A stretch of 64,000 bases of DNA from a bacterium (GTDB lineage Bacteria; Electryoneota; RPQS01). Shown piece after piece: positions 39,183 to 60,672 of this stretch; positions within the stretch are counted from its first letter, which is position 1, and each line of letters opens with the position of its first letter. The stretch is taken from assembly GCA_026394155.1 (NCBI GenBank), contig JAPKYT010000117.1, forward strand, positions 1,993 to 65,992, in the 5' to 3' direction. The position numbers and the translations under genes are program-made. The notes beneath the pieces are model-generated. The model was not told the DNA's origin. It saw only the letters and a list, made by a program, of their open reading frames with translations, and did no database searches.

Positions 39183-39239
39183 TGTAGGGTCGGTCTGCGA
39201 CCGACTCTTTCCAGAGCGGGTCACAGACCCCGCCCTACA
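39183..39239. repeat. REP/MITE-like double-hairpin palindromic element, copy B.
   Basis: gtagggTCGGTCTGCGACCGA ctctttccaga GCGGGTCACAGACCCCGC cctaca. It sits in the divergent intergenic region between the giant T9SS gene and the GT2 gene. Confidence 0.7.
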
Positions 39240-44529: not shown

Positions 44530-44883
44530 TCAGGAACGAACAAAGTGCGGCATCTCCCACGGAATTTCCAGCGACAGCTCGACAAAGCCGCTATACGCGC
44601 CGTCATCGTGCCACGGAACCTGATAGATCAGTTTTCGCACGCCGTCTTTTTCAATCGTATATATGTTGGCCGTGCCCTCTTCCAGCATGCGGCGCAGCCT
44701 GCTGCGCGCCGGCTCGGGGTGACAGTCCAATAGGTTCGATCCGACAAGTTTTTCGCCGCCGTCGGCGGCAAAAATCTCGCAAGCACGATCATTCATGTAC
44801 TGAATGATTCCGTCCCGGTCGCAAACCGTAACCGCGAAAGGGGCGGCGCAAAGCCACACCGGCAGTGAAGGGCGGGAGATCAT
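44530..44883 (-). CDS. Small stand-alone PAS-domain protein, translationally coupled to cstA.
   Basis: PAS-like core (PFAVTVCDRDGIIQYMNDRACEIFAADGGEKLVGSNLLDCHPE). The ATG at 44883 overlaps the cstA TGA (ATGA). The upstream part of ORF 44530..45306 overlaps cstA and is rejected. Confidence 0.65.
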   Translation of the reverse strand: MISRPSLPVWLCAAPFAVTVCDRDGIIQYMNDRACEIFAADGGEKLVGSNLLDCHPEPARSRLRRMLEEGTANIYTIEKDGVRKLIYQVPWHDDGAYSGFVELSLEIPWEMPHFVRS

Positions 44884-46646
44884 GGCGTGCTTCCTCGTTT
44901 CTCCGACAGCGACGCGCGCGCCGATGCCGGTCTGAAGAATGTGCGCACCACCAGCACGGTCACTCCCACGGACAAGACGAGCAGCAACACGTCCGTGACC
45001 ATCAGCAGCACATTGCGCTGCTCGATATACTTGCGGAGCAGGATGAAAAGCGACGCAAGTGTGGTCAGAATCATGAACAGCGCCGGCAGCAGGGCGAAGG
45101 CGTACTTCTTTCCCCGCAGCAGCAGCCAAGCCGACACCGCCAAAAGACCCAGCGCGGCCAAGAGCTGATTGGCCGTGCCGAAAATCGGCCACAGCGCACT
45201 GAACGCGTTGGCATAAGCCAGCACCCACATCAACGCCACCGATAGGCCGGCATTGAACCAGTGATGGCGAAGCAACGCTGGCGGGTTTTTGAACAGAATC
45301 GCCCACAGCTCCTCAAACAAATAACGGTTGAGACGAACTGCCGCGTCCAGCGTCGTCACCACGAATCCCTCCACGAGAAGAATGCCGAACACCGTGCCCA
45401 GCGCCGTCGGGATGCCCAAGCTGTGATGAAAGAGCTGCCCGGCGGCCAGTGAGAAACCCAGAATCGGATTCGATTTCACGCCCGGATCGGTCGGCCAGAC
45501 CACCGATTTGTAGTCGGCGAAGCTCAGAGCCGCGCCGATGGTGAGCAGCACACAGACGGCCAGGAGCGATTCGAGCAGCATGGCGTTGAAACCCACCTTG
45601 CGCGCGTCCGTCTCTTGCGAGAGTTGTTTTCCCGTCGTCCCGCCCGCCACCAGCGAATGAAAGCCCGAGATGGCCCCGCAAGCGATGGTGATGAACATCA
45701 TCGGCCAGATCAAGCCGAGGTTCTGCATGCCCTCGCTGAGGTTGAATTGCGGCACCGACACGGACAAACCGCCCAGCCCTCCGACCACCAGCGATACCAC
45801 CATGAGAAGGATGCCGCCGTAAAGAATCTGCACGTTGATGAAGTCGCGGGGCTGCAAGATCACCCACACCGGTGTGCCCGCCGCGAACAACACGTAGATC
45901 GAAATCAGAATCATCCACACCCGGGGTTCAAGAGTCACCGGGCAGGCTATGCCTAACAGAACCGATGCCACACAGATTACAGCGGCCAGCGCATAGGCCG
46001 CGGGGAGTCGAATGCCGCGGCGATAGAGGAGCCAGCCGAGAAGCGGCGAGCACAGCGTAATGACAATCACCGACATGGAGGCGATGCCGCCGATGCGGCC
46101 CATCACCACGCCATCCTTCACCACCGTCTTCAGAAACGTCCCGCCTTCGACCGCTCCGATCTTGGCCAGCGGCCAGAGCGAGGTCAGCGAAATGGCCGTG
46201 GCACTGAGAAACGACGAGGTGACGAGCACGATCATCACAATCGTGAAGCCGATGAACAGGTTGAACCCCGCGGGTCCCAGCGTGCGGCGCGCGACCTCCG
46301 CCATGGACTTGCCGCCCTCGCGCATGCTGATGAAGAGCGTCGTGAAATCGTGCACGGCGCCGATAAAGATGCCGCCCAAAACCACCCACAGCCAGGCCGG
46401 CAAAAAGCCGTAGAGCGCGGCCATGGTCGGCCCCAGAATCGGTCCCGCGCCGGCGATGGCCGAAAAATGATGCGCGAAAACCACGTGCCGCTTGGTGGGA
46501 ACGTAGTCGCGGCCGTCGTTGTACTGCACGGCGGGTGTGGGCCGCTTCGGATCTTCACCAAGGGAGCGCGCAATGTAGCGTGCGTAGGTGCGCGTCGCCA
46601 CCCAGAATGCCACCACCGCCAGTGATAGAAAGACCAGAACGTTCAT
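44880..46646 (-). CDS. cstA: Carbon starvation protein A (peptide/pyruvate transporter family).
   Basis: Full-length 588-aa polytopic protein with the conserved CstA N-terminus (VVFAHHFSAIAGAGPILGPT...AVHDF). Confidence 0.9.
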   Translation of the reverse strand: MNVLVFLSLAVVAFWVATRTYARYIARSLGEDPKRPTPAVQYNDGRDYVPTKRHVVFAHHFSAIAGAGPILGPTMAALYGFLPAWLWVVLGGIFIGAVHDFTTLFISMREGGKSMAEVARRTLGPAGFNLFIGFTIVMIVLVTSSFLSATAISLTSLWPLAKIGAVEGGTFLKTVVKDGVVMGRIGGIASMSVIVITLCSPLLGWLLYRRGIRLPAAYALAAVICVASVLLGIACPVTLEPRVWMILISIYVLFAAGTPVWVILQPRDFINVQILYGGILLMVVSLVVGGLGGLSVSVPQFNLSEGMQNLGLIWPMMFITIACGAISGFHSLVAGGTTGKQLSQETDARKVGFNAMLLESLLAVCVLLTIGAALSFADYKSVVWPTDPGVKSNPILGFSLAAGQLFHHSLGIPTALGTVFGILLVEGFVVTTLDAAVRLNRYLFEELWAILFKNPPALLRHHWFNAGLSVALMWVLAYANAFSALWPIFGTANQLLAALGLLAVSAWLLLRGKKYAFALLPALFMILTTLASLFILLRKYIEQRNVLLMVTDVLLLVLSVGVTVLVVRTFFRPASARASLSEKRGSTP

Positions 46647-46680
46647 CCTGTCATCCCCGTCATCTTGAACACTCGTTTGC

Positions 46681-47433
46681 TCAATGCGCCGTGAACAGTA
46701 ATTTCGCCGCCGCCAGAAGCAGCACCACCGCTAACAGCCGCCGCAGTAGGCTGCCGGAAAACTTGTTGGCTCCCAGATGCGAACCGAGAAGTCCGCCCGC
46801 AAAAGCCGCAAGCAGCGGGACAAGAACCGGCATGACGTCCAGCGTCCCGCGCACCGCCCTTCCGGCGATCCCCGCCAGCGAATTCGCCACGATGAAAATG
46901 GCGGCCACGGCCGCGGCCTGCTTGGCGGTGGCCCAGCGCGCAAGGATGAGAATGGGACTGAGCAACACGCCTCCCCCGATGCCGATCATACCCGAAAAAA
47001 GGCCAATGGTTCCACCCAGAGGAAAGGCCGCTGCGAGCGGGAGCGTTCGAGTCGGTTCATGCGGGTTCCTCAGCGGCATGAGCCCAAGCCTGAGCGCCGC
47101 CGCCAACAGACCGACGGCGAGCAGAACGAAATACAAGCGATCTGTAACCTTCAGGTAACCGCCAAGAAAAGCCGCCGGCGCCGATACGAAAACGAAGGGC
47201 CACAAAAGTCGTCCGATCAAGTGATGCGCACGCCCAAATGCGATCGCAGCCATCCCCGCCACCAGCACATTGAGCATGAGCGCGGTTCCCGACATCTGCG
47301 CCGGCGCAACAGCGAAGAAAGACAAGACGGCAAGATAGCCCGACGCGCCGCCATGCCCTACGGACGAGTAGAGCAGCGCCACCACAAAGAGCAGGGCGGA
47401 CACGAGCAGCGTGGATGGCCAAGACCACTCCAT
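46681..47433 (-). CDS. Sulfite exporter TauE/SafE family membrane protein.
   Basis: About 8 TM helices with the duplicated TauE motif (SSVGHGGASGY and GIGGGVLLSPIL). Confidence 0.85.
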   Translation of the reverse strand: MEWSWPSTLLVSALLFVVALLYSSVGHGGASGYLAVLSFFAVAPAQMSGTALMLNVLVAGMAAIAFGRAHHLIGRLLWPFVFVSAPAAFLGGYLKVTDRLYFVLLAVGLLAAALRLGLMPLRNPHEPTRTLPLAAAFPLGGTIGLFSGMIGIGGGVLLSPILILARWATAKQAAAVAAIFIVANSLAGIAGRAVRGTLDVMPVLVPLLAAFAGGLLGSHLGANKFSGSLLRRLLAVVLLLAAAKLLFTAH

Positions 47434-47440
47434 GTGGCTC

Positions 47441-47908
47441 TTACCCGTGTTGCGATGCGGCGCTCACCGCCGTCATCGCCTCGACTCCATCGCCAACGCG
47501 GATCGTCCCTCCGCAAACCACGCGCGCAAACAAGCCTTCGCGCGGCATGACGCAGTCGCCCACGCGGGCGTAGATCGAGCAACGCGCGTGACACACCTTT
47601 CCGATTTGAGTAATCTCCAATTTGCAGTCGCCGACGACAAGCTCATCACCTATGTGCAATGCGGTAAGATCAATGTCCTGAGTTGTAATATTCTCAGCAA
47701 AATCGCCCGGCCGCACGTCCAGACCGAGTGCGCGGATGGTGGCGATGCTCTCTACGGCCAGCAGGCTGATTTGCCGGTGCCACGTCCCCGCGTGAGCGTC
47801 GCCTTCGATGCCCCAGTTCTCGATCAGACGCGCATGGGTCACATTCGTCTTCGGCACGCCCTTTTCCGTGCTGACGGATATGGCGGCGATTTTGCCGCGG
47901 CCTACCAT
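47441..47908 (-). CDS. MOSC (MoCo sulfurase C-terminal) domain protein.
   Basis: MOSC-like segment ENWGIEGDAHAG...RQISLL...PGDFAENITT with a conserved Cys near the C-terminus. Start at MVGRGKIAAI (47908), 3 nt after the moeA stop. Confidence 0.7.
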   Translation of the reverse strand: MVGRGKIAAISVSTEKGVPKTNVTHARLIENWGIEGDAHAGTWHRQISLLAVESIATIRALGLDVRPGDFAENITTQDIDLTALHIGDELVVGDCKLEITQIGKVCHARCSIYARVGDCVMPREGLFARVVCGGTIRVGDGVEAMTAVSAASQHG

Positions 47909-49176
47909 GACAACAGCTCCACCGTAACCGGTTCGTCCTTGTCCAGCTTGACCGCCTCGGCAGGGAAGTGAACAAGACATTGCGCCGCGCAGAGTCCGCC
48001 TAACATGTGCGAATCCTGTCCGCCCGTGGGATAGGCAATGACACCGCCCTCTTCATAAGCTAATGTCGCGCGCACAAATTCGAGTCTGCCCGCGCGTTTT
48101 CGCAGCGGAGTGCCCATTCGCGCGGAAACCAGCAATGGCGAAACCTCTCGGGCGCCCATCAGAAGGAGCAGCGCCGGTCGCACGAAATGATGAAACGACA
48201 CGAGAGCGGACACCGGATTACCCGGCAAGCCGAAAAGCAAGCGAGTCTTTCCGCTCGCATCTTGGGCCGGCGCGGTCGCAAAGACATTGGGTTTGCCGGG
48301 CTTCATCGCCACTCTCGTAAAGTGCGTGTGTGCACCAACAGCCGCCAGCGCATCGCGCACAAAATCATAATCGCCAACCGACACTCCTCCGACGGTAATG
48401 ACCACGTCCGCTTCACTCACCGCCTGCCGCAGCACTTCAATCACGGCCTCGAGCTTGTCGGACACGTGACGCACGGAGCGCTCGCGAACACCCAAAGCAT
48501 GACAGGCAGCGGCCAGCGCCACCGAGTTGCCGTCATAGACGCCCGCTTCTCCTAACTCGCCTCCCGGCGCTACTAACTCGTCACCGGTCGAGATAATCGC
48601 CACGCGAGGCCGGGCATGAACAGCCACGCCCGTCATGCCCAAGCTAACAAGCTGCCCAAGAACGGGAGGCGAGCAGCGCGTGCCCGCACTCAAAACGGTC
48701 TGACCTTGACGATATTCACCGCCCGCGCGGCGAATGTTCTCGCCCGCTTGCGCGGAGCGATGCACGGTTACGGTTCCGCTCGACTCTTCGCAGAACTCGC
48801 GCATGACCGCGGCTTCCGTTCCCTGGGGAACGGGAGCGCCGGTCATGATCTTCACGGCTTCGCCCGCGCCCGGTCCGCGGCCTCCGGCCTCCCCCGCGCG
48901 AATAGTTCCCGCCAGACGGAGCGCAACCGGAGTCTCGTTGCTTGCCTTCTCAACGTCGGCCAAGCGAACGCAAAAACCGTCCACCGCCGAGTTGTCGAAA
49001 CGGGGCATGTCGAACGGGGCTTTGATTTCTTCGGCCAGAAACCGTCCCGCCGCCTCCTCCAACGCCACCGTCGCAATCGGCAGCGGATGCGCATGTTCGA
49101 TGACGAGTGATCGCGCCGCTTCAAACGAAATCACCGCTGGCGTTTCTCCTGTGCTGATGGATGACCTCCGCCCCAC
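47902..49176 (-). CDS. moeA: Molybdopterin molybdenumtransferase.
   Basis: MoeA domains with motifs FDNSAVDGF, GMTGV, ISTGDEL, ITVGGVSVGDYDF, FGLPGNPVSA. Confidence 0.9.
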   Translation of the reverse strand: MGRRSSISTGETPAVISFEAARSLVIEHAHPLPIATVALEEAAGRFLAEEIKAPFDMPRFDNSAVDGFCVRLADVEKASNETPVALRLAGTIRAGEAGGRGPGAGEAVKIMTGAPVPQGTEAAVMREFCEESSGTVTVHRSAQAGENIRRAGGEYRQGQTVLSAGTRCSPPVLGQLVSLGMTGVAVHARPRVAIISTGDELVAPGGELGEAGVYDGNSVALAAACHALGVRERSVRHVSDKLEAVIEVLRQAVSEADVVITVGGVSVGDYDFVRDALAAVGAHTHFTRVAMKPGKPNVFATAPAQDASGKTRLLFGLPGNPVSALVSFHHFVRPALLLLMGAREVSPLLVSARMGTPLRKRAGRLEFVRATLAYEEGGVIAYPTGGQDSHMLGGLCAAQCLVHFPAEAVKLDKDEPVTVELLSW

Positions 49177-50066
49177 AGCATGGCGAAGGCATGCCGAAGT
49201 CCCGGAAACAGCGCGTCCAGAGATTCAGCTGCGCCGCGCTTAGAGCCGGGCAAGTTGATGATGATGGTGCGCCCGCGTAGGCCCGCCTTGCCGCGCGAAA
49301 GCATGGCGAACGGTGTTCGTTCCTGCCCATAAGACCGCAACACCTCGGGAATGCCCGGGATCTCGCGCTCGATGACGTGCATCATCGCTTCCGGCGTCGT
49401 GTCGCGCGGGCCGAAACCGGTGCCGCCGGTGGTGACGACCAGATCAAGATGCATCGTATCGGCGTAGCGAATCAGCGTATCGCGAATCTGCGCGGCATCG
49501 TCGGGAATAACACGGTAATCTTCGACCGCAAATCCCTCCGCCTTAAGCCGCTGCTCGATGAGCCGTCCTGAAAGATCATCATTCTTTCCGGCGGCAATCG
49601 TATCCGACATCACTAACACGGCAGCGCGCAAGGGTTTCTCGAACTCTTCGCGGTAATCCGATTTTCCGCCCTTCTTATCAATAAGTTTCACCGCGCGAAT
49701 CTCCAGCGTATCATCCAGCATCTTCAGCATGTCGTAGAGAGTCAGCGCCGCCACCGAGGCGGCGGTCAGCGCCTCCATTTCCACGCCGGTCTTGTAGATC
49801 GCCTTGACCGTAGCGGAAATCACGATCTCCTTTTCGCCTAACTCAAATTCTACACCCACAAAATCCACCGGCAGCGGATGACAGAAGGGAATAATCTGCC
49901 ACGCGCACTTGGCCGCCTGAATCGCCGCCACCCTCGCGACCTCGAGCGGATTGCCCTTGGGAACGTCGTTCCGCTGGATGCGACCCAGCGTTTCCGGTCT
50001 CATCGTGACCGTTGCTTGCGCGACCGCCGTGCGAAACGTCTTTGTTTTCCTCGAAATGTCCAGCAT
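49131..50066 (-). CDS. moaC: Bifunctional fusion of cyclic pyranopterin monophosphate synthase MoaC and MoaB/MogA-type molybdopterin adenylyltransferase.
   Basis: N-terminal MoaC (GNPLEVARVAAIQAAK...FCHPLP...EMEALTAASVAALTLYDM) fused to a MogA/MoaB domain (AAVLVMSDT...GGTGFGPRDTTPEA...INLPGSKRGA). Start at MLDISRK (50066); the ORF-track extension overlapping moaA is rejected. Confidence 0.88.
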   Translation of the reverse strand: MLDISRKTKTFRTAVAQATVTMRPETLGRIQRNDVPKGNPLEVARVAAIQAAKCAWQIIPFCHPLPVDFVGVEFELGEKEIVISATVKAIYKTGVEMEALTAASVAALTLYDMLKMLDDTLEIRAVKLIDKKGGKSDYREEFEKPLRAAVLVMSDTIAAGKNDDLSGRLIEQRLKAEGFAVEDYRVIPDDAAQIRDTLIRYADTMHLDLVVTTGGTGFGPRDTTPEAMMHVIEREIPGIPEVLRSYGQERTPFAMLSRGKAGLRGRTIIINLPGSKRGAAESLDALFPGLRHAFAMLWGGGHPSAQEKRQR

Positions 50067-50068
50067 CG

Positions 50069-51046
50069 TCAACCTCCGATAGCGGTCATGCAGCGGTTCT
50101 CGACTTCGGCCAGATCGCATTCCGGCGGATGGGCGAAATCTTTCCCGGCCAGCGCCGAGCGAACCAGTTCAGCCAAGGTGTCTTCGCCGGCCCCGGCGCG
50201 CAGCGCGTCACGCAAGCTCACTTCCGCGCCGCGCAGCAGGCAGGACTTGATGGCGCCGTCGGCTGTCAGCCGCACCCGGTTGCAGCCGCCGCAGAATTGT
50301 GCGGTCAAGGGCGAGATGAAACTGATCCAGCCGGCGGCGTCCGGCAAATCGAAGTCGCGCGCCACGTCGCTGCTCCCGTTCGCGCGCGGCGTCAGCGCAT
50401 GGTGCTCTTCGATGATGCTCTTGGCCGTGCTCCACGGCACCACCCGCTCGCGCTGCCACCCGTTTCCGGTGAACGGCATAAACTCGATGAAGCGCACGTT
50501 GACCGGCTTGGCGCGCGCCAGCTGTGCGAAATCGCAGAGTTCGTCGTCGTTCACGCCCTTCAGCACGACCACGTTAATCTTCAGCGGCCGAAAGCCCGCA
50601 TCAATCGCCGTGTCTATCCCGGCCAGAACATCCGCCAGACGGTCGCGCTTGGTGATTTCGATGAAGCGATTCGGGCGCAGTGTGTCCAAGCTCACGTTCA
50701 GCGCCTGCAACCCCGCGGCGCGCAACGCGTGCGCCTTTTCCCGCAGGCGCGCGCCGTTGGTGGTCATGCCGAGTGTTTTCAATCCCGGAAGCCGTGCTAA
50801 CTTCGCCACCAGCCACTCGATATTGTCGCGCACGGTGGGTTCGCCGCCGGTAAGACGGACTTTTTCGATGCCCAGCCCCACCATCAGGCCGGCGATGCGC
50901 ACAATCTCCTCCAGAGAGAGAATCTCCGGCCGCGGCCGCCAGCGAAAATCCACCGCCGGCATGCAATACACGCAGCGCAGATTGCAGCGATCCGTCACCG
51001 CGATGCGCAGATAAGTGTGCCGCCGGCCGAATCCGTCAGTGAGCAT
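50069..51046 (-). CDS. moaA: GTP 3',8-cyclase (radical SAM).
   Basis: CNLRCVYC radical-SAM motif, GGEPT, and C-terminal Cys cluster CGGCNRVRLTADG. Confidence 0.92.
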   Translation of the reverse strand: MLTDGFGRRHTYLRIAVTDRCNLRCVYCMPAVDFRWRPRPEILSLEEIVRIAGLMVGLGIEKVRLTGGEPTVRDNIEWLVAKLARLPGLKTLGMTTNGARLREKAHALRAAGLQALNVSLDTLRPNRFIEITKRDRLADVLAGIDTAIDAGFRPLKINVVVLKGVNDDELCDFAQLARAKPVNVRFIEFMPFTGNGWQRERVVPWSTAKSIIEEHHALTPRANGSSDVARDFDLPDAAGWISFISPLTAQFCGGCNRVRLTADGAIKSCLLRGAEVSLRDALRAGAGEDTLAELVRSALAGKDFAHPPECDLAEVENRCMTAIGG

Positions 51047-51677
51047 GGCCGCGCTCCCGCATGCGCCGATTGAGTTCGGCCAGTTCCGACGGAGTGTTCA
51101 CGCTGGTCAATAGCTTCTCTTCTTCAACGGCGATTTCGATCCACTGCGGAGACACCGCCGCCATGAGCGCGCGCAGCGAGCGGTCGGGCGAGGCCAGAAT
51201 GCGTTGTACGTCTTCAAGCAGAGAGGCGGGAAGATGAGCGGGCAGTGGCAAAACCGAACTGATGCGCGCCGCCCGGAAAAAATGCGGTCGCTGTGCGTCA
51301 CCCTCCACCAGGCGGCGCAGCAGCATCACGCTGAGCAGCGGCTGATCGCAGGCGGCCACGATGTAGCGGTTGTCAAGGCCGCTGGCCAGCAGTGCCTCTA
51401 TTCCGGACAGCGGTCCCAGTCCCCCTTTTCGGTCAGGAATCCGAACCACGCGCGCACCGGCTTGCAGGCTAAGTGAACTGTCCGCTCCCACCACGACCAC
51501 CCGCGGACAGACTGTTAGCAGTGTGTCCAGCAGGTGCTCGATCATGGTGCGACCGTCCCAAAGCCGCACGGCCGCCTTGGGCTTTCCCATCCGCGCGCTC
51601 TGTCCTCCGGCCAAAATCGCCCCGCTGGGAAAGCTCGCCTGATCCGAAACCTGTTGATTCGCCGTCACTAAGCCCAT
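51036..51677 (-). CDS. mobA: Molybdenum cofactor guanylyltransferase.
   Basis: GAILAGGQSARMG (nucleotide-binding loop) and MobA-like fold. Overlaps moaA by 11 nt. Confidence 0.8.
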   Translation of the reverse strand: MGLVTANQQVSDQASFPSGAILAGGQSARMGKPKAAVRLWDGRTMIEHLLDTLLTVCPRVVVVGADSSLSLQAGARVVRIPDRKGGLGPLSGIEALLASGLDNRYIVAACDQPLLSVMLLRRLVEGDAQRPHFFRAARISSVLPLPAHLPASLLEDVQRILASPDRSLRALMAAVSPQWIEIAVEEEKLLTSVNTPSELAELNRRMRERGHAH

Positions 51678-51819
51678 GCCCTCGGTATCCAGAACTAACT
51701 AACCAATGTACAACAACGATTTATCAAGGTCAACGACCGGCAACCCCTTGCCAATCCGCGAATCTTTCCACATATTGACGTGACCGAAAGCCCCGCACTG
51801 CACCGATCACAGCCCGTCC

Positions 51820-54021
51820 ATGAATCCCATCACCCGCCGCCGGTTCCTGAAAATCACCGGAACATCTCTCGGCGCGGCCGCCGCCGCCAAGACGCTGAGT
51901 GTCCTGCCCGGAACTGCCCACGCGCTGGAAAAGGCCGCCGCGCCTTCCGGCGTGCAGGTGATTCCTACTTTCTGCGACGTTTGCTTCTGGAAGTGCGGCG
52001 CGCTCGCCTACGTGCGAGACGGCAAACTGTGGAAGGTGGAGGGCAATCCCGAAGATCCTCTGAGCCGCGGCCGTCTGTGCCCGCGCGGCACCGGCGGCAT
52101 CGGCGCGCATTATGATCCGGACCGCCTCACCTCGCCACTTCTCCGCCGCAGTTCGCGCGGCAAAGAGGAGTGGGTGGAGGTCACTTGGGATGAAGCCCTC
52201 GACTATATTGCCGAGCGCATGCAAGCCATCAAGGCGAAGTACGGCCCCGAGTCCGTTGCGCTTTTCACTCACGGCATCGGCGGCAATTTCCTCAGGCACG
52301 CGGTGCGCGCCTACGGTTCACCGAATATCGCCGCGCCATCTTTTGCCCAGTGCCGCGGCCCGCGCGACGTGGGATTCCGGCTCACCTTCGGCGAAGACGT
52401 CGGTTCGCCCGAGCGCACCGATATCGCCAACGCGCGCTGCATCGTTCTCATCGGCTCGCACCTCGGCGAGAACATGCACAACACGCAGGTTCAGGAGTTT
52501 TCGGAGGCGATGGCCGCCGGTGCGAGCCTCATCGTGGTGGATCCGCGGCTTTCCGTCGCCGCCGGCAAGGCCAAGTGGTACCTGCCCATCAAACCCGGCA
52601 CCGACATGGCTCTCCTCTTGGCGTGGATGAATGTCTTGCTGCGCGAGAATCTCTACGACAGGGAATACGTGGCGGCTCACGGGTTCGGCTTCGAGCAGTT
52701 TGCCGCCGGGATCGTGGATTTCACGCCCGAGTGGGCTTATCCCGAAACGGGAATTCCGCCGGAGGTCATTCGCGAAACCGCGCGCGAGATGGCCCGCTAT
52801 CGTCCGGCCACGCTCGTTCACCCCGGCCGGCATGTCACGTGGTACGGCGACGATGCCCAGCGCAGTCGGGCCATTGCGCTCCTCAACGCGCTGCTCGGCA
52901 GTTGGGGCCGCAAGGGCGGATTCTACTATCCGCAGAGTATGGACGTGCCCGCCTACCCGTATCCGCCTTACCCGAAATCCGAGAAAGGCAAGGTGGACAA
53001 TCCCAATAATAAATATCCGTTCGCCGACGAAACCCTCACCACGGGCATTCGCGAGGCCACCATCAGCGGCAAACCTTACCCGGTGAAGGGCTGGCTGGTT
53101 TACGCCACCAATCTCATCCATGCGTTGCCCAACGAAGCGGAAACGATCTGCGCCCTGCAGGAACTCGATCTGCTCGCAGTGGTGGATGTCATTCCCAGTG
53201 AAATCGCCGGCTGGGCGGATGTGGTGCTGCCCGAGTCCATCTACCTCGAACGCTATGATGATCTGAACGTGGAGTGGTTCCGCCAGCCGTTCATTGCGCT
53301 GCGCCAGCCTGTGGTGAACTCGCCGCACAACCAAAAACCCAACTGGTGGATTGCCAGGAAACTCGCCGACAAACTCGGTCTCGGCGAGTACTTTCCGTGG
53401 AAAGACATCGAGGAATACCTGCAATACCGCTTGGACAAAGCGGGCTACAGCTTCGATGAGCTGAAACGCAAGGGCATCATCCGAGGCGAGAAACAGCCCA
53501 TCTATTTCGATGAGGGCGTGCCCGCCGAGTTCGCCACACCCTCGGGCAAGATCGAATTCTACAGCCTGCAACTCGCGCAGGCCGGATTCGATCCGGTTCC
53601 CCAATACGCACGTCCCGCCGAGCCGCCGCCGGGCTACTTCCGCCTGCTTTACGGCCGCGCTCCCGTGCACTCGTTCAGCCGCACGCAATCGAATCGGCTG
53701 CTCATGGACATGCTGCCCGAAAACGATGTGTGGGTCAACGCCGATGTGGCCGCCCGCCGGGGTTTGAAGAGCGGAGACTACGTGCGACTGAAGAATCAGG
53801 ACGGCGTGCTGAGCAACCGCATTCGCGTCAAGGCTACGCAGCGCATCCGGCCCGATTGTGTCTATATGGTGCACGGCTTCGGCCATACCGCCAAGGGCTT
53901 GCGTTTCGCCCGCGACAAAGGAGCCAGCGATGCACAGCTTCTCACCCGCTATCAGACCGATCCTCTCATGGGCGGCACCGGGATGAACGTCAACTTCGTG
54001 ACTTTCGAGCTTGAGGCATAG
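51820..54021 (+). CDS. psrA: Molybdopterin oxidoreductase catalytic subunit, polysulfide/thiosulfate/tetrathionate-reductase-like (PsrA/PhsA-type), Tat-exported.
   Basis: Tat signal MNPITRRRFLKITGTSLGAAAAAKT. 4Fe-4S motif CDVCFWKCG...C. Molybdopterin-binding domains. 733 aa, typical of the Psr/Phs/Ttr clade. Substrate not determinable from sequence. Confidence 0.8.
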   Translation: MNPITRRRFLKITGTSLGAAAAAKTLSVLPGTAHALEKAAAPSGVQVIPTFCDVCFWKCGALAYVRDGKLWKVEGNPEDPLSRGRLCPRGTGGIGAHYDPDRLTSPLLRRSSRGKEEWVEVTWDEALDYIAERMQAIKAKYGPESVALFTHGIGGNFLRHAVRAYGSPNIAAPSFAQCRGPRDVGFRLTFGEDVGSPERTDIANARCIVLIGSHLGENMHNTQVQEFSEAMAAGASLIVVDPRLSVAAGKAKWYLPIKPGTDMALLLAWMNVLLRENLYDREYVAAHGFGFEQFAAGIVDFTPEWAYPETGIPPEVIRETAREMARYRPATLVHPGRHVTWYGDDAQRSRAIALLNALLGSWGRKGGFYYPQSMDVPAYPYPPYPKSEKGKVDNPNNKYPFADETLTTGIREATISGKPYPVKGWLVYATNLIHALPNEAETICALQELDLLAVVDVIPSEIAGWADVVLPESIYLERYDDLNVEWFRQPFIALRQPVVNSPHNQKPNWWIARKLADKLGLGEYFPWKDIEEYLQYRLDKAGYSFDELKRKGIIRGEKQPIYFDEGVPAEFATPSGKIEFYSLQLAQAGFDPVPQYARPAEPPPGYFRLLYGRAPVHSFSRTQSNRLLMDMLPENDVWVNADVAARRGLKSGDYVRLKNQDGVLSNRIRVKATQRIRPDCVYMVHGFGHTAKGLRFARDKGASDAQLLTRYQTDPLMGGTGMNVNFVTFELEA

Positions 54022-54023
54022 GC

Positions 54024-54563
54024 ATGGCGCGCTTCGCCATGGTCATTGACACCCGCCAATGCGTCGGCTGCATGGACTGTGTGGTCGCCTGCAAGACCGA
54101 AAACGGCGTGCCCGAGGGCTTCAATCGCGACTGGATTGTGCAGGATGTGAACGGCATTTATCCCACGCTGCACATGGAAATTCGCAGCGAGCGCTGTAAT
54201 CACTGCGACAATCCTCCCTGCGTCTACTGCTGTCCGACGGGAGCCAGCCACGTGCACGATCTGGGCGGCGTGGTGCTGGTGCATCACGAAAAGTGCATCG
54301 GCTGCAAGGCCTGCCTCGCCGCTTGTCCCTATGATGCGCGCTTTGTCCATCCCGAAGGTTACGCCGACAAATGCACTTTCTGCATTCATCGCGTGGAGAA
54401 GGGACTTCAGCCGTCGTGCGTGGCCGTGTGCCCCACCTACTGCATGTATTTCGGCGATCTCGATGATCCCTTGAGCGAAGTCAGTCTGCTTCTAACCTCG
54501 CGGAAATATCACCTGCTGCTTCCCGAAACCGGAACCCAGCCGCACATCTACTATCTCACCTAA
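54024..54563 (+). CDS. psrB: 4Fe-4S ferredoxin-type electron-transfer subunit (PsrB/DmsB-like).
   Basis: Four Cys clusters: CVGCMDCVVAC, CNHCDNPPCVYCCP, CIGCKACLAACP, CTFC...C. Confidence 0.88.
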   Translation: MARFAMVIDTRQCVGCMDCVVACKTENGVPEGFNRDWIVQDVNGIYPTLHMEIRSERCNHCDNPPCVYCCPTGASHVHDLGGVVLVHHEKCIGCKACLAACPYDARFVHPEGYADKCTFCIHRVEKGLQPSCVAVCPTYCMYFGDLDDPLSEVSLLLTSRKYHLLLPETGTQPHIYYLT

Positions 54564-54581
54564 GCCGTTATTGCCGAGGTC

Positions 54582-54698
54582 GTAGGGTCGGTCTGTGACC
54601 GATGCCTCAAGACGCGGGTCGCAGACGGCGCGATTGCCGGGGTGGTAGGGTCGGTCTGCGACCGACGCCTCGAGACGCGGGTCGCAGACCCGCCCTAC
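54582..54698. repeat. Tandem pair of REP/MITE-like double-hairpin elements, copy C.
   Basis: Two units of gtagggTCGGTCTG[T/C]GACCGA-spacer-GCGGGTCGCAGAC(CCGC)cctac. Each arm is a perfect hairpin (TCGGTC-TGC-GACCGA; GCGGGTC-GCA-GACCCGC). They lie between psrB and the BNR T9SS gene. Confidence 0.75.
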
Positions 54699-54723
54699 TC
54701 AACCCCAAAGAAAAGGGGCATGT

Positions 54724-56862
54724 ATGAAACCGTCTGTGCTCTCTTGGAGTCTGTCGGCTCTGCTCGCACTTTCGCTGCACGCAGGGGCGGAAGTCTGGGA
54801 ATGGCAAAACCCTCTGCCGGCAGGAAACAATCTGGAAGGCGTGGCCTTCACGGATTCGCTGACAGGGTGGATGGTCGGGGGATACGGCACCGTGTTCCAC
54901 ACGACCGACGGCGGTGTCACGTGGAACACGTGGAGTGTGCCCACGCTGGCGCATCTTCAAGCCGTCTCCTTTGCCGACGCTCGCAACGGCTGGATTGCCG
55001 GCTGGGACTGGGCCACGCAGCGCGGGATTATCCTTCACACCACCAACGGCGGCGCTTCGTGGACAACGCGCTCCTCGCAGTGGGATCCGTGGTGGGAAAA
55101 AGTCGTCTGCGTGGACAGTCTCTCGGCGTGGGCCTGCGGATGGGGAACCATTCTGCAAACCACCAACGGCGGAGCCACGTGGCTGACACGTTTCGATGAT
55201 CTCTACTTGTCTTTCTATGGGATGACGGTGGTTGACGACTCCAACGTATGGGTCGCCGGCTACGATGCGCTCTCTTCCGAAGGCTGCGTGCTGCGCACGA
55301 CCGACGGCGGAGTGAATTGGGATGTGCTCTGGCCGTCCGGCGCCACGTATCTTTGGGATGCCGCCTTTGTGAGTGCCGACACGGGCTTTGTCGTCAGCTT
55401 CTATGGACAACTTTTTCGAACCGGCGATGCTGGTCAAACATGGTCTGCCAGCGTGCCCGGATCGGGCGGCACTCTGGTCAGTGTGTGCTTTGCCGATTCC
55501 CGCAACGGTTGGCTCACTGGCACCAATGGCCGCGTGCTGCACACCACGGATGGGGGCGAGAGCTGGGCACAAACTTCCGTCGGCACGCATTGCTTCCTCA
55601 CCGATATCTGTTTCACCGATTCCACGCGCGGCTGGGCCTGCGGCGAGGGAAGCGGCCGCTTCCGTTCCACCGACGGTGGCCAAACGTGGTCTCGCTTCGG
55701 CAGCGGAGTTGACGCCACGCTCACGGGCGTTTCCTTTGCGGATGCATTCAACGGCTGGGCCGTCGGAGGCTACGGCGTGATCCTCCACACCACCAACGGC
55801 GGCCAAGCTTGGCAGCAGCAGGTCAGCGGCCTTCAAACTTGGATTTCCGATGTCGCCTTCGTGAATACTCTGACCGGTTGGGCCGTGGCCTATGGAACCA
55901 TCATTCACACCTCCGATGGGGGCGGTTCGTGGCAGGCTCAAATCAGCGGATTGAACGCCTCATTCAGCACTGTGGACTTCGCCGACACTCTTTCCGGATG
56001 GGCTGTCACCTACGACGCGACCATCTTCCACACGAGCGATGGCGGCGCGGTCTGGACTCCGCAAGCGAGCGGCGTCACGACGGAACTCTGGAACGTGGAT
56101 GCCGTGGACTCGCTGAATGCGTGGGCCGTTGGTTACGGTGGCACTTGGCCGTACACGGGATACCTGCTGCGAACCACCAACGGCGGCCAGGACTGGTCGG
56201 TTCAATCCACCCGCAACAACGTCTACTGGTTGGGTGTGAGTTTCGCCGAAAACGGCCACGGCTACATCGTCGGTGCCGACAATCAAAGAGGAAGTGGGGA
56301 GATCTGGCAAACTTACGACAACGGTCTGCATTGGTCCGCGATGCAATTGAACGCTCCCGGAACCGTCCTCTACAATGTGAAATGCCGCGGGGAAACCGCT
56401 GTGGTCGTCGGGCAATGGGGTTTCATTAAGCGAACGGCAGACGGCGGCGTGAACTGGTCGCGGGATACGAGCTACACGGACAACCTGCTGGAGGATGTGG
56501 CTCTCGCCGATGGCGGTCACGCCTGGGTCGTCGGCGAGGGAGGAACGATCCTGCACAGCCTTTCACCCAGCGCAGCGGAGTATCTCCCTCCCGCGGTGGC
56601 AAGCTCCTACGAACTGCGCGCCTTTCCCAATCCGTTCAACCCGCTGACCACCGTCACGGTGAGCCTGCCCGCTTCAGGCCGGGCCCGCGTGGATGTCTTC
56701 GACGTCACCGGCCGCCTGCGGCGAACACTGGTCAACACAGCGCTCTCCGGCGGCACGCACACCTTTGTCTTTGACGCGTCCGATTGGCCCAGCGGTGTTT
56801 ACTTCGCCCGTCTCACTGCCGGAGAGCGATCCCGCACGCTCAGGCTTCATCTCCTGAAGTAA
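54724..56862 (+). CDS. T9SS-sorted BNR/Ycf48-like beta-propeller repeat protein, inserted between psrB and psrC.
   Basis: Signal peptide. About 11 repeats of the [IVL][LF][HR]T[TS][DN]GGxxW[ST] type (BNR/Asp-box, Ycf48-like). CTD YELRAFPNPFNPLTTVTVSLP...SGVYFARLT...RLHLLK. Confidence 0.8.
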   Translation: MKPSVLSWSLSALLALSLHAGAEVWEWQNPLPAGNNLEGVAFTDSLTGWMVGGYGTVFHTTDGGVTWNTWSVPTLAHLQAVSFADARNGWIAGWDWATQRGIILHTTNGGASWTTRSSQWDPWWEKVVCVDSLSAWACGWGTILQTTNGGATWLTRFDDLYLSFYGMTVVDDSNVWVAGYDALSSEGCVLRTTDGGVNWDVLWPSGATYLWDAAFVSADTGFVVSFYGQLFRTGDAGQTWSASVPGSGGTLVSVCFADSRNGWLTGTNGRVLHTTDGGESWAQTSVGTHCFLTDICFTDSTRGWACGEGSGRFRSTDGGQTWSRFGSGVDATLTGVSFADAFNGWAVGGYGVILHTTNGGQAWQQQVSGLQTWISDVAFVNTLTGWAVAYGTIIHTSDGGGSWQAQISGLNASFSTVDFADTLSGWAVTYDATIFHTSDGGAVWTPQASGVTTELWNVDAVDSLNAWAVGYGGTWPYTGYLLRTTNGGQDWSVQSTRNNVYWLGVSFAENGHGYIVGADNQRGSGEIWQTYDNGLHWSAMQLNAPGTVLYNVKCRGETAVVVGQWGFIKRTADGGVNWSRDTSYTDNLLEDVALADGGHAWVVGEGGTILHSLSPSAAEYLPPAVASSYELRAFPNPFNPLTTVTVSLPASGRARVDVFDVTGRLRRTLVNTALSGGTHTFVFDASDWPSGVYFARLTAGERSRTLRLHLLK

Positions 56863-56879
56863 CGACACGCAAACCCGCC

Positions 56880-57854
56880 ATGCTCGAACTGACCACCACG
56901 CGGCACAACCCGATGATTGATCCCACCCTGCACGTCTGGGGGTGGGAGATTCCCGTCTATCTCTTTCTGGGCGGCATGGTGGCGGGAATCATGATCATTT
57001 CCGGCTACTTCCTCTTCAGTGGCCGTCATCGGGCGAGCACGCAATGCTCCTGTTTTCAAGTGCCGCTGGTGGGTATCGCTCTGCTCACGCTCGGCATGCT
57101 CGCTCTCTTCCTCGATCTTGAGCACAAACCATTCACTTGGCGGCTCTACACCACCTTCGAGATCAAATCGCCCATGTCGTGGGGTGCGTGGATTCTCGTC
57201 TTGGTCTATCCCGCGCTGGCCGCCGTGGCCGCACTGCGCATTCCCGAATCGTGGCGGATCGCTTTCAAAGGCCGGCTTGCACGTCTCGTCTTGTTCTCCG
57301 AGCGAATCCGCGGGAGCGCTGCTGCCACCAAAACCATCGGCATCGTCAACATGTTGCTGGGCGGGCTCTTGGGCATCTACACCGGTGTGCTTCTGAGCGC
57401 TCTGGGCGCGCGGCCTCTGTGGAGCAGTTCCATTCTGTGGCTGCTGTTTGTCGTGTCGGGACTCTCATCCGCCGCCGCCTTCGCGCACATGATCGCCCGC
57501 GACCCGTACGAGCGCGTGCTGCTGGCGAAAGCGGACAACGGTTTTCTGATTTTCGAGCTGTTCGTTTTCGCGCTGTTTTTCATCGGTCTGGCAAGCACGA
57601 GTGAGGCTCACCTGCGCGCGGCGCAGCTTCTGCTCGGCGGCGCGTTCGCACCGGCCTTCTGGGTTTTTGTGATCGGGCTCGGCATTATCATTCCGCTCAT
57701 TGTGCAGCTCATGGCCGTGAATGGCAAAATTCCCCACACTCCGATGGCACCGATTCTGGTCATGGGCGGCGGACTCGCTCTGCGCTTTGTGATCGTCTCC
57801 GCCGGCCAGTTCAGTCACTGGATGAACGCGCACGGCCTGCCCCTGCCGTTCTAA
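56880..57854 (+). CDS. psrC: Polysulfide reductase NrfD/PsrC-type integral membrane anchor subunit.
   Basis: 8-TM NrfD-like profile with the N-terminal segment HVWGWEIPVYLFLGGMVAG. Start at MLELTTT (56880), 18 nt after the BNR-protein stop. Confidence 0.8.
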   Translation: MLELTTTRHNPMIDPTLHVWGWEIPVYLFLGGMVAGIMIISGYFLFSGRHRASTQCSCFQVPLVGIALLTLGMLALFLDLEHKPFTWRLYTTFEIKSPMSWGAWILVLVYPALAAVAALRIPESWRIAFKGRLARLVLFSERIRGSAAATKTIGIVNMLLGGLLGIYTGVLLSALGARPLWSSSILWLLFVVSGLSSAAAFAHMIARDPYERVLLAKADNGFLIFELFVFALFFIGLASTSEAHLRAAQLLLGGAFAPAFWVFVIGLGIIIPLIVQLMAVNGKIPHTPMAPILVMGGGLALRFVIVSAGQFSHWMNAHGLPLPF

Positions 57855-57928
57855 ACTCGCTATGATAAGCAATGAACGCCGTGGTGGCTCTCCCGAGCCG
57901 CAATGGCGGATTCGAGGAAGGTCCTGAA

Positions 57929-58489
57929 ATGTCCATATTGTCGAGTGCGGCGGCGATTGCGGATCACGCGCTGCACAAGGAACGTCCCTACTGGCACCCG
58001 TACGCCGCCGGAATCGGTCTGGGTCTCGTCCTTCTCCTTGCCTTCGTGATTGTGGGCCGCGGCCTCGGTGCGTCGGGCGCGTTCTCGTCGCTGGTGGCCA
58101 CCGTGGTGCACGCGGTTGCGCCCGCGCACGCAGAGAGCAATGCGTTCTACGGCGAATATCTGGGCGACGGCTCGAAAAGTCCGCTTCTCGATTGGCTTGT
58201 GTTTGAGGTCATGGGCGTGTTTGCCGGTGGATTCTTGTCGGGAGCGCTGGCCGGTCGCCTTCGCATCACCGTGGAAAAGGGCCCGCGCATTTCGACGCCG
58301 GGTCGCCTGATGCTCGCCTTCCTCGGCGGATTCATCATGGGCGTGGGTGCGAAGCTGGCGCGCGGTTGCACCAGCGGACAGGGGCTAACCGGCGGCGCTC
58401 TGCTCAGCGTGGGTGGTTGGGCCTTTATGCTCTGTGTTTTCGCCGGAGCCTATGCGACGGCTTACTTCGTGCGGAGGCAGTGGATATGA
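57929..58489 (+). CDS. YeeE/YedE family sulfur-compound transporter, first half-size gene.
   Basis: Conserved YeeE/YedE motif GCTSGQGLTGGALLSVGGW. An alternative upstream start lies at 57872. Confidence 0.75.
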   Translation: MSILSSAAAIADHALHKERPYWHPYAAGIGLGLVLLLAFVIVGRGLGASGAFSSLVATVVHAVAPAHAESNAFYGEYLGDGSKSPLLDWLVFEVMGVFAGGFLSGALAGRLRITVEKGPRISTPGRLMLAFLGGFIMGVGAKLARGCTSGQGLTGGALLSVGGWAFMLCVFAGAYATAYFVRRQWI

Positions 58490-59085: not shown

Positions 59086-59742
59086 ATGAAGAATCCGCTG
59101 ACCAATCTGAACTGGAAACAGCGCATCGCTCTACTTGCGCTCGTGCTGGGTCTGATCGCGCTCTTCGCCGGCAGTCCCTACGGTGGCAGCCGCGTGAGTC
59201 TCGACACCAAGGAACTGGCGCTGATGGTGCAAAACGAGCGCGATCATGTGAGCGTCGAGCAGCTTGCCGACTGGATCATTCAAGGTCGCTCCGGCTATCG
59301 GCTGCTGGATTGCCGAAGTGAGAAAGAATTCAACGAGTATCATATTCCCTCCGCCGAGTCCGCCCCGCTTTCATCCTTAAGCGATTATCCAATTCAGCGC
59401 AACGAGAAGATCATCCTCTATTCCGAAGGCGGCATTCACGCCTCGCAAGCATGGTTCCTGTTGGCGGCAAAGGGTTACAAGCATGTGTACCTGCTCACCG
59501 GGGGACTTGATGAGTGGCGCGAGAAAATCCTCTTTCCGGCAATTCCCGAAAACGCCGCCGCCGAACAACAAGCGCAGTTCACCAAGATGAAAGAGGTCAG
59601 CCGCTTCTTCGGCGGCACACCGCAAACCGGAGCGGCTTCCGAGCAGACAGCAGTGAAAAAAGAAATGCCCAAGCTCCCCGCCACTTCCGCCGGGACTCCT
59701 GCGCCGACCACGGGAGGCAAGAGGAAAAAGGAAGGCTGCTGA
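59086..59742 (+). CDS. Membrane-anchored rhodanese-like sulfurtransferase domain protein.
   Basis: N-terminal TM helix. Rhodanese fold with active-site loop ILYSEGGIHASQAWFLL (a Cys-less variant cannot be excluded; the region has CRSEKE upstream). Low-complexity C-terminal tail. Confidence 0.7.
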   Translation: MKNPLTNLNWKQRIALLALVLGLIALFAGSPYGGSRVSLDTKELALMVQNERDHVSVEQLADWIIQGRSGYRLLDCRSEKEFNEYHIPSAESAPLSSLSDYPIQRNEKIILYSEGGIHASQAWFLLAAKGYKHVYLLTGGLDEWREKILFPAIPENAAAEQQAQFTKMKEVSRFFGGTPQTGAASEQTAVKKEMPKLPATSAGTPAPTTGGKRKKEGC

Positions 59743-59819
59743 GCGCGACAAGTGAGAAACGGAAAGGGTCGGGAGATTCTCCCGCCCGTCAGGCTGTTGA
59801 CAAAGTCCTCGCATTTTGC

Positions 59820-60672
59820 GGGGGCTTTTGTTATGTTGGGGCATGGTATTGTAGTGGAGTTTAGCCGAGGTTCAGATGCTGAAGAAGCAGGGTGGCAAGC
59901 CGACGGAACTGGAGTTTGTGTCGGTAGATGAGCTGGTTCCGGGCGATCATTTGCTGCGCAAGGTTGAGCGGGCGGTGGATTTTTCGTTCATTCGGGAACG
60001 GGTGGCCAGCGTCTACTGCGCGGACAACGGGCGTCCGACGATTGATCCGGTCATCCTGTTCAAGATGCTGTTCATCGGCTATCACCGCCCGACGCACCGC
60101 AAGGGCTATTTTTATAAGCGGGACTACACGTATTACCGGAAGTCCGATCATTACGTGTGTCCGGCGGGACAGGTCTTAACCTACTCAACCACGAACCGTT
60201 GGGGGTACCGCGAGTATAAATCGGATCCGGACTTGTGTCAATACTGTCCGTTGCTGGAGCAGTGCACGCAAAGCGCGAACCATGTCAAGGTGATCACCCG
60301 CCACGTGTGGGAACGCAGCAAGGAACGGATCGGCAAGCACCGACTGATGGAGCGCGGGAAAACCCTTTATCAGCATCGCAAAGAAACGGTGGAACGAAGC
60401 TTTGCCGACGCCAAAGAGCTGCACGGACATCGCTACGCCAAGATGCGCGGACTCCGCAAAGTCCAAGAGCAATCACTGCTGTGCGCCATCTGCCAAAACA
60501 TCAAGAAGATCGCCCTGATCGCGGGCGGTTCCTTGAAAAACCGTCTCGCGCGGCTTCTCAAAACCCTCTTTTCTGCTTTCCAACTCTACCCCTGCCTCTT
60601 ACCGGTCACGATCAGACCGCTTCCATCGCCCGACATCCCGTAAGAGCCTATGCCACTCCCAAAACAAACCCC
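59820..60672 (+). mobile_element. IS1182-family insertion-sequence remnant (deletion derivative) with imperfect ~26-bp terminal inverted repeats.
   Basis: Left end GGGGCTTTTGTTATGTTGGGGCATGG. The reverse complement of the right end is GGGGTTTGTTTTGGGAGTGGCATAGG, about 17 of 26 positions identical. It encloses a half-length transposase ORF. Confidence 0.45.
59876..60643 (+). CDS. Truncated IS1182/IS5-type transposase (InsH N-terminal domain + zinc ribbon + C-terminal DDE_Tnp_1_6 tail; the catalytic core is missing).
   Basis: N-terminus ELVPGDHLLRKVERAVDFSFIRERVASVYCADNGRPTIDPVILFKMLFIGY (DUF772). CPAGQVL...CQYCPLLEQCTQS zinc ribbon. C-terminus YQHRKETVERSFADAKELHGHRYAKMRGLRKVQEQSLLCAICQNIKKIA. 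Only 255 aa versus about 450-500 aa for intact family members. Confidence 0.75.
   Translation: MLKKQGGKPTELEFVSVDELVPGDHLLRKVERAVDFSFIRERVASVYCADNGRPTIDPVILFKMLFIGYHRPTHRKGYFYKRDYTYYRKSDHYVCPAGQVLTYSTTNRWGYREYKSDPDLCQYCPLLEQCTQSANHVKVITRHVWERSKERIGKHRLMERGKTLYQHRKETVERSFADAKELHGHRYAKMRGLRKVQEQSLLCAICQNIKKIALIAGGSLKNRLARLLKTLFSAFQLYPCLLPVTIRPLPSPDIP

Follow-up and report, generated by a model that had tools for sequence, protein, structure and literature searches.

The 64,000-nucleotide stretch of contig JAPKYT010000117.1 analysed here (the window), from an assembly placed in the Electryoneota, contains an operon for a polysulfide/thiosulfate reductase-like molybdoenzyme (psr) with a gene for a secreted protein lodged between its second and third subunit genes. 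Seven genes, psrA through a rhodanese gene, lie in the same direction on the plus strand within 51.8-59.8 kb (Table 1). The embedded gene encodes a beta-propeller protein with a sorting domain for the type IX secretion system (T9SS). An earlier annotation made from the letters of the DNA alone (the sequence-only reading) had placed psrA, psrB, a 712-residue T9SS-sorted propeller gene, and psrC on this strand in this order, and the domain matches agree. It had given the gap before psrC as 18 nt, and this is corrected here to 17 nt. The start of psrC is the ATG at 56880, which yields a protein of the same length as its orthologs, and not the TTG at 56784 of the mechanical open reading frame (ORF) call.

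The genes on both sides of the insert form a molybdoenzyme operon of a known type. PsrA has the Molybdop_Fe4S4, Molybdopterin, and dinucleotide-binding Molydop_binding domains, and its N-terminus has a twin-arginine motif, TRRRFLK, at residues 5-11, read from the translation. The second subunit is a Fer4_11 ferredoxin and the third an NrfD membrane subunit. The Psr operon of Wolinella, the Phs operon of Salmonella, and PsrABC of Thermus have the same A-B-C order of a catalytic subunit exported by twin-arginine translocation (Tat) and carrying the molybdenum bis-pyranopterin guanine dinucleotide cofactor (Mo-bisPGD), a ferredoxin, and an NrfD anchor, and they belong to the complex iron-sulfur molybdoenzyme family with NrfD-type anchor. 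The linked rhodanese gene, the YeeE/TsuA-like transporter, and the adjoining cluster for molybdenum cofactor (Moco) biosynthesis extend this likeness, whereas the 2.1-kb gene for a T9SS-secreted protein between B and C sets the window apart. The best NCBIfam match of PsrA is the thiosulfate reductase PhsA (NF012032), but at 505.8 bits it is below the cut-off of 694 for an equivalog-level assignment. PsrA is therefore labelled only Psr/Phs-like, and the substrate (polysulfide, thiosulfate, or other) is left unassigned.

Outside the lineage of the window, the psr cassette is found without the propeller gene. Retrieval with PsrA gave 80 genome loci plus metagenome contigs, and 72 distinct loci besides the window show both psrB and psrC; their PsrA is 68-83% identical. 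The cassette order of psrABC, split transporter, and rhodanese gene is kept in these loci, and the rhodanese gene is kept at the cassette end in about 60 loci. Between psrB and psrC the median gap is 13 nt and the longest 638 nt, compared to 2316 nt in the window, and in none of the 72 does a propeller gene occupy it. The interruption thus exceeds what chance would give. The nearest psr relatives (PsrA 80% identical) have gaps of 60 nt (L007/L008) and 53 nt (L009). The 72 loci span Ignavibacteriota, Bacteroidota, Acidobacteriota, Opitutales, Gemmatimonadota, and Proteobacteria, and their psrC is 50-70% identical to that of the window. These results uphold the view of the sequence-only reading that the Tat/Mo-bisPGD, ferredoxin, and NrfD genes are normally adjacent and that the window is unusual. 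Loci L010-L089 come from metagenome-assembled genomes that include some labelled Bacillota, with PsrA at the same 68-83% identity throughout, which suggests that the psr-transporter-rhodanese cassette has been extensively transferred horizontally, although some bins may be mis-assigned.

The junction between psrB and psrC accepts other inserts as well. Ten other loci have gaps of 110-638 nt. In L015 the spacer holds a PD-(D/E)XK gene of the 'GxxExxY' type (PDDEXK_3, 10945-11322, E 9e-44), and in L047 it holds a GIY-YIG gene (10899-11204, E 3e-17). Eight further loci have unexplained spacers of 110-430 nt, some of them with hairpins (L014, L019). The nuclease-type genes and long spacers thus argue that the junction tolerates inserts, and it seems to be a recurrent landing site. 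These small selfish genes are lodged at exactly the junction used in the window, but the insert of the window encodes a large secreted structural or enzymatic protein and not a nuclease-type one.

Within the lineage of the window (PsrA 92-100% identical) the propeller gene was in place before the strains diverged. Three further metagenome contigs show it 3' of psrB. L001 is the only one of the three that reaches psrC, and it has the propeller gene (93% identical) between psrB and psrC. In L006 and L091 the order is psrB, spacer, and propeller start, and the contigs end before psrC. Between the window and L001, the synonymous divergence (dS) is 0.232 for psrB, 0.237 for the propeller gene, and 0.264 for psrC (95.7% identical), with ratios of nonsynonymous to synonymous divergence (dN/dS) of 0.015, 0.154, and 0.080, respectively. 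The dS of the propeller gene equals that of its flanks, so it has co-diverged with its neighbours and its insertion predates the divergence of the strains. By these ratios, the gene is functional and under purifying selection. Its composition is host-like, with a GC content of 0.619, a third-position GC content of 0.724, and a correlation of 0.86 in relative synonymous codon usage with a reference gene set. A metagenome scan with the propeller protein returned L001 again and otherwise distant homologs at 23-37%. For PsrC, clustering at 90% gives a group of 13 members (P0250-P0261), among them ones on contigs of 72,465, 26,263, and 9,974 bp. The sequence-only reading had proposed that a propeller gene always in the same place in relatives would point to an ancestral arrangement. 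That is what is seen inside the lineage, in L001 directly and in L006 and L091 as far as the start of the gene; it is never seen in psr loci outside the lineage, and a sister lineage keeps the propeller gene in the same chromosomal neighbourhood without psr genes.

The locus in this sister lineage suggests that the propeller gene is an old neighbour of the operon. The closest propeller homologs outside the lineage, P0002/P0262, are 47-49% identical and come from a related organism. They and the window protein are each other's best match once members of their own lineages are set aside, judged among the top 120 hits of the search with the window protein against 5.8 billion proteins. Their locus, L099 (also sampled as L002 and L100), has the order cstA (minus strand), a 243-nt spacer, a MarR regulator gene (plus), the propeller gene (plus), a strong terminator, and unrelated convergent genes. 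The cstA gene is the synteny anchor that it has in common with the window: the two CstA proteins are 78.5% identical over 596 residues, the cstA of the window lies 8 kb upstream of its propeller gene, and the GC content of L099 is the same, 61%. The psr operons of L007/L008 and L013 have a MarR gene ahead of psrA, by 22 nt in L007/L008, and the L099 MarR protein is 60% identical to the MarR of L007/L008 and 46% identical to that of L013. Apart from one relic, no psr or Moco genes are present at L099. The relic is GVEMENLTAAAASAQTLFD, encoded on the minus strand of the cstA-MarR spacer (L099 3205-3261, also L100 724-780). It agrees in 13 of 19 residues with positions 112-130 of the window MoaC, which is the most conserved MoaC motif, and the strand is the same in both. 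When the spacer was shuffled 3000 times with its dinucleotides preserved, no shuffled version equalled this score against any of 13 window proteins. This 19-residue MoaC-like relic indicates that a Moco gene cluster has been deleted there in the past. The simplest reading of these sequences is that the L099 locus once held Moco genes, and probably psr genes, and that it lost both but kept the regulator and the propeller gene. The synteny thus suggests that the linkage of the propeller gene to this locus predates the window lineage and that the gene has been maintained without psr genes beside it.

Other parts of the comparison with the sister locus gave no matches. Neither of the palindromes upstream in L099, TTCACTAAGTGAA and ATGCTGAGTAGCAT, recurs ahead of MarR or psrA in the window, L007, or L013, and the mobA-psrA and psrB-propeller spacers of the window lineage contain no significant MarR relic. 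The heads of the psr cassettes vary. A MarR gene is found there in L007/L008 (9443-9979) and L013 (7538-7969), and a MerR gene in L009 (9490-9966) and L059 (2456-2941); the window lineage has no regulator at this position. AATTCACTTGACAA occurs in the MarR promoters of both L007 and L013. T9SS propeller genes of the BNR type are located about 1-1.5 kb 5' of the psr regulator in L059 (1-1899, minus strand) and L009 (6951-8519). The L059 gene is divergent and its protein 26% identical to the window protein, and the L009 protein belongs to a different family, BNR_2, with a sorting domain. A general enrichment of propeller genes near psr loci was considered and rejected, as these two cases are about the level expected by chance in the propeller-rich genomes of the FCB group (Fibrobacterota-Chlorobiota-Bacteroidota).

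The tandem palindrome next to psrB appears to be incidental to the insertion. The sequence-only reading had correctly described a tandem palindromic element at this position. Its two copies (54570-54626 and 54633-54689) are 91% identical, the second being a full 54-nt palindrome at 54645-54698, and the RNA of the psrB-propeller spacer has a strong predicted fold of -82 kcal/mol (z = -3.9). The core of the element is repeated at 20195-20250 and 39185-39239, giving four matches where 0.17 are expected by chance. In its short size (about 55 nt), imperfect palindromy, intergenic position, multiple and sometimes tandem copies, and stable fold it resembles repetitive extragenic palindromes (REP) and miniature inverted-repeat transposable elements (MITE). 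It differs from them in having no Rfam family, no associated transposase identified, and a rapid turnover in the psrB-propeller spacer. Rfam searches of the whole window at the gathering threshold, and of 51000-57200 at E <= 1, found neither a palindrome family nor a Moco riboswitch. The element is not a canonical terminator because no U-tract follows the hairpins. In the segments 20160-20250 and 39158-39239, each of these two other copies follows just 3' of a conserved motif, GTGCCGTTTCCAT[T/A]AAGGT, which suggests that the element is part of a larger, composite repeat or that it lands beside a conserved signal at gene ends.

A repeat-mediated insertion, as the sequence-only reading had suggested, would make this REP/MITE-like element the substrate for recombination or transposition of a foreign propeller gene. 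The element does lie immediately after psrB and belongs to a family dispersed in the genome, the L091 spacer has a fragment resembling its left arm directly at the psrB stop, and a DDE transposase gene and a low-GC island are present just 3' of the operon. However, L001 and L006 carry the propeller gene and lack the element in the same spacer. This spacer is 160, 202, 228, or 254 nt long among the members of the lineage, only 47-56% alignable, and has different small palindromes in each; its conserved part is only the last 25 nt or so, with a purine-rich GGGGG motif. The mobA-psrA spacer by contrast has a constant length of 142 nt and is 84-94% identical across the lineage. The absence of the element from L001 and L006 and the hypervariable spacer therefore argue that the palindrome is a later occupant and not the agent of insertion, and it belongs to a dispersed REP-like family that turns over rapidly here. 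On the psrC side there is no remnant of the element other than a 7-of-8 match between its right end and the 17-nt spacer, which is at chance level (an estimated 0.4 or so expected). No direct repeats or target-site duplication bracket the propeller gene, where only the internal blade repeats and the tandem palindrome were seen. The dS equal to that of the flanks, the host-like composition, and the presence of the closest outside homolog in the same chromosomal neighbourhood of the sister lineage also stand against a recent event. Insertion by the palindromic repeat is thus largely refuted and very unlikely.

The propeller protein is predicted to be exported to the cell surface. It has a cleavable signal peptide (residues 1-22), propellers at about 26-613, and a C-terminal sorting domain at about 630-710. 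The propeller region matches PSII_BNR (E 2e-48 in five stretches) and BNR in Pfam and has about fourteen blades of 40 residues. The sorting domain matches Por_Secre_tail (PF18962) with 29.4 bits against a cut-off of 27 and TIGR04183 (T9SS type A sorting) with 34.8 bits against a cut-off of 23, and the family profile matches a solved T9SS C-terminal domain, 8glj_D (E 4e-5). The N-terminus, MKPSVLSWSLSALLALSLHAGA/EV, was read from the sequence as a Sec signal peptide; it forms a helix at residues 2-18 in the structural model and is without a lipobox cysteine. Together, the Sec signal and the T9SS type A domain mark the protein for export to the cell surface or into the medium. An AlphaFold (AF2) model made from an alignment with 35 homologs has a mean local confidence (pLDDT) of 89.4 and a predicted template modelling score (pTM) of 0.81, and shows two seven-bladed propellers followed by a C-terminal beta-sandwich at 630-710. 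The closest whole-chain neighbours in Foldseek are xyloglucanases of glycoside hydrolase family 74 (GH74; 5fkq, 6mgl, 6mgj), with template modelling (TM) scores of 0.52-0.55 and 12-15% identity. In the model, the protein has the GH74 architecture (5fkq, 6mgl, 2cn3) of two seven-bladed propellers forming a substrate cleft, but the low identity and a match to the NCBIfam glycosylhydrolase family F510_1955 far under its cut-off set it apart. Most plausibly, going by the modelled fold, it is a glycan-binding or GH74-like surface protein.

The propeller gene is one of several genes for T9SS cargo in the window. At least four other window proteins have a T9SS C-terminal sorting domain. Large cargo genes are located at 5185-8604 (minus strand), 14900-17950, 17993-20044, and 30515-38569 (minus strand), and the cargo includes an S8 peptidase, a PQQ/Ig-repeat protein, and a protein of 2684 residues. 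The genome appears to be rich in T9SS cargo. The exact propeller sequence of the window (54724-56859) is absent from a collection of 15 billion proteins in which PsrA (MCX6601533.1) and PsrC (MCX6601536.1) from the same contig are present; the gap in the accessions (…534, …535) suggests that the record annotates the propeller protein with a different start.

The resemblance to Ycf48 probably does not extend to its role. Ycf48/HCF136 is a photosystem II (PSII) assembly factor acting on the D1 protein, and the sequence-only reading had offered a Ycf48-like assembly or stability factor of PsrAB as one of its two explanations. Such a dedicated periplasmic factor would fit with the position of the gene between those for the soluble subunits and the membrane subunit. 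The likeness in sequence and fold is significant: both proteins have seven-bladed propellers that share a repeat unit of about 40 residues, and each single propeller matches Ycf48 with a TM score of 0.75-0.79 (normalised to Ycf48), 21% identity, and a profile E value of 3e-45. However, the 'YCF48-related' family of T9SS proteins to which it belongs is very large, taking in 6331 of 8000 scored candidates at E <= 0.001, and the protein scores 177.6 bits over six stretches against the cut-off of 326 for the Ycf48 equivalog NF010237. Ycf48/HCF136 is a lumenal lipoprotein with a single propeller (about 330 residues), whereas the window protein has two in tandem, a T9SS domain, no lipobox, and a destination at the cell surface rather than in the thylakoid lumen. 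No PSII genes were seen among the window genes examined. The 72 homologous operons do without the protein. Export by T9SS, which would take it out of the periplasm, and persistence in the sister lineage without adjacent psr genes argue against a Ycf48-like role in Psr assembly, and this explanation is extremely unlikely.

Overall it appears somewhat probable that the propeller gene is a long-standing neighbour that has become embedded in the psr operon and is carried along with it, and that it is neither a helper of Psr nor a fresh insertion driven by a repeat. A widely transferred cassette of six genes for sulfur reduction would then have a seventh gene embedded between psrB and psrC in one narrow lineage. 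In the common ancestor the propeller gene would already have been a neighbour of a psr/Moco locus headed by MarR. In the window lineage a local rearrangement may have put it into the permissive psrB-psrC spacer, and in the sister lineage the psr and Moco genes would later have been deleted while MarR and the propeller gene were kept. A single transcript would run from the psrA promoter through all seven genes, past the palindromic hairpins with their missing U-tract, to the terminator-like hairpin. Expression of psrC would depend on read-through of the propeller gene or on the candidate promoter inside it, around which 46 nt are identical in L001. The two products would part company after translation: PsrAB would reach the periplasm by the Tat pathway and dock on PsrC, while the propeller protein would leave by Sec and T9SS and act independently at the cell surface. 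In this reading the propeller gene would be transcribed with the operon as a passenger, or would at most share its regulation, and its product would not be a Psr subunit or assembly factor.

Several points weigh against this account. That the genes are co-transcribed and that psrC depends on read-through are themselves predictions from the gene layout. The sequences fit an ancestral propeller gene in its present place between psrB and psrC as well as one adjoining the operon, and the proposed direction of events is tentative. No relics of psrA, psrB, psrC, the transporter, or the rhodanese gene were found around the L099 propeller gene, and the MoaC relic is only 19-20 residues long. The MarR homologs P0244 and P0248 are not linked to psr, so the label of a 'psr-type' MarR rests on two lineages, L007/L008 and L013. 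In addition, the purifying selection, the tight 17-nt junction with psrC, and the MarR link would also be expected if the gene had a real functional tie to sulfur respiration.

Such a tie would mean that the gene has been recruited. A surface propeller would belong to the sulfur-respiration regulon, where it might bind or mobilise extracellular elemental sulfur or polysulfide or remodel the surface, and its placement would reflect selection for co-expression. Two architectures are consistent with this, one inside the psr operon in the window lineage and one in L099/L002, where the propeller gene follows the gene of a MarR 60% identical to the MarR that heads a psr operon, as are the dN/dS of 0.15 and the psrC junction conserved in 15 of 17 nt in L001. 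On the other hand, the propeller gene is absent from the 72 other psr loci of many phyla, and the sister locus keeps it with no psr or Moco genes there. A third member of the subfamily, P0004 (42% identical, in L003), is surrounded by unrelated genes for T9SS cargo, with psr, MarR, and cstA genes all absent from its vicinity, and L003 and the window have only the propeller and similarity in the C-terminal domain in common. The protein has no sulfur-related domain, its fold resembles GH74 and Ycf48, and a search of full-text papers that connect Ycf48 to T9SS, or polysulfide reductase to type IX secretion, turned up no report of this gene arrangement. Functional recruitment is therefore rather unlikely, and the chance that the propeller subfamily is truly co-regulated with sulfur respiration is put at low to quite low. 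The more specific proposal, that the T9SS double-propeller subfamily is a lineage-restricted outer-surface component of a polysulfide/thiosulfate respiration regulon, co-expressed with PsrABC and, for example, capturing or processing extracellular sulfur substrates, is doubtful enough to be called quite improbable. Should the propeller protein prove to be co-regulated with sulfur respiration as part of it at the cell surface, T9SS cargo and anaerobic respiration would be connected in a new way.

As a lineage-specific form of an operon type already known, the locus is of modest interest. What stands out most is the series of erosion from the window to the sister locus, along with the possible co-regulation of the propeller subfamily with sulfur respiration. 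With the propeller gene as an embedded neighbour, it would be a natural example of a tightly organised respiratory operon that takes in an unrelated gene and keeps working, and it would show how tolerant is a junction that elsewhere hosts hairpins, GIY-YIG genes, and PD-(D/E)XK genes. The sister locus resembles a later stage, in which the enzyme and cofactor genes are gone except for the MoaC relic and the regulator and passenger survive. There are also two cautions for annotation. 'Ycf48-like' here refers to a fold repeat and does not imply a role in assembly like that in PSII, and the place of a gene within an operon does not in itself show that its product joins the others in a complex.

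Table 1. Features of the psr operon and its neighbours (positions in the 64-kb window)
Feature	Position	Strand	Basis
cstA, carbon-starvation/pyruvate transporter family	44880..46661	-	NCBIfam CstA, E 5e-61
TauE/SafE (divergent accessory cluster, 46681..51677)	46681-47433	-	Pfam/NCBIfam match
MOSC (same cluster)	47441-47980	-	Pfam/NCBIfam match
moeA (same cluster)	47902-49176	-	Pfam/NCBIfam match
moaC-moaB fusion (same cluster)	49131-50120	-	Pfam/NCBIfam match
moaA (same cluster)	50069-51046	-	Pfam/NCBIfam match
mobA-like (same cluster)	51036-51677	-	Pfam/NCBIfam match
Candidate promoter 5' of psrA, TTGCCA-17-CATATT	51748..51776	+	Consensus scan only
psrA/phsA-like Mo-bisPGD catalytic subunit, Tat signal, 733 aa	51820..54021	+	Pfam PF04879, PF00384, PF01568
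psrB, four-cluster ferredoxin subunit, 179 aa	54024..54563	+	Pfam Fer4_11, E 8e-25
Tandem REP-like palindromic element (partial copy 54570-54626, full copy 54633-54698)	54570..54698		Fold, repeat scan
Propeller gene, T9SS-sorted tandem double seven-bladed Ycf48/BNR-like protein, 712 aa	54724..56862	+	PSII_BNR, Por_Secre_tail
Candidate psrC promoter within the propeller gene, TTGAAC-18-TACAAT	56347..56376	+	Consensus scan, weak
Spacer from propeller stop to psrC start, 17 nt	56863..56879	+	15/17 nt identical in L001
psrC, NrfD-type membrane anchor, 324 aa	56880..57854	+	Pfam NrfD, E 1e-37
YeeE/YedE (TsuA-like) sulfur transporter, first half	57872-58489	+	Pfam Sulf_transp; NCBIfam TsuA/YedE
YeeE/YedE (TsuA-like) sulfur transporter, second half	58486-59082	+	Pfam Sulf_transp; NCBIfam TsuA/YedE
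Rhodanese-domain protein, final cassette gene	59086..59742	+	Pfam Rhodanese, E 1e-16
Terminator-like hairpin and T run, likely operon end	59802..59828	+	12-pair stem; best such site in region

The neighbouring genes include a Moco cluster, a probable mobile island, and a possible cytochrome. The mobA/moaA/moaC order of the divergent accessory cluster is also found in the lineage contigs L006, L090, and L091. Downstream of psrC, the two halves of the transporter overlap by ATGA. The operon terminator is immediately followed by a DDE transposase gene (DDE_Tnp_1_6, 59876-60643) and then by a segment of low GC content (46-53%, compared to about 62%) with a DUF4041/T5orf172 gene at 61821-63212 on the minus strand. 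The segment 59876-63212, which abuts the psr cassette, probably represents a mobile island. Farther upstream in the window, a 500-residue ORF at 28916-30418 has paired CXXCH motifs and similarity to DmsE-like decaheme cytochromes, and from its sequence it is a possible extracellular or periplasmic electron-transfer component.

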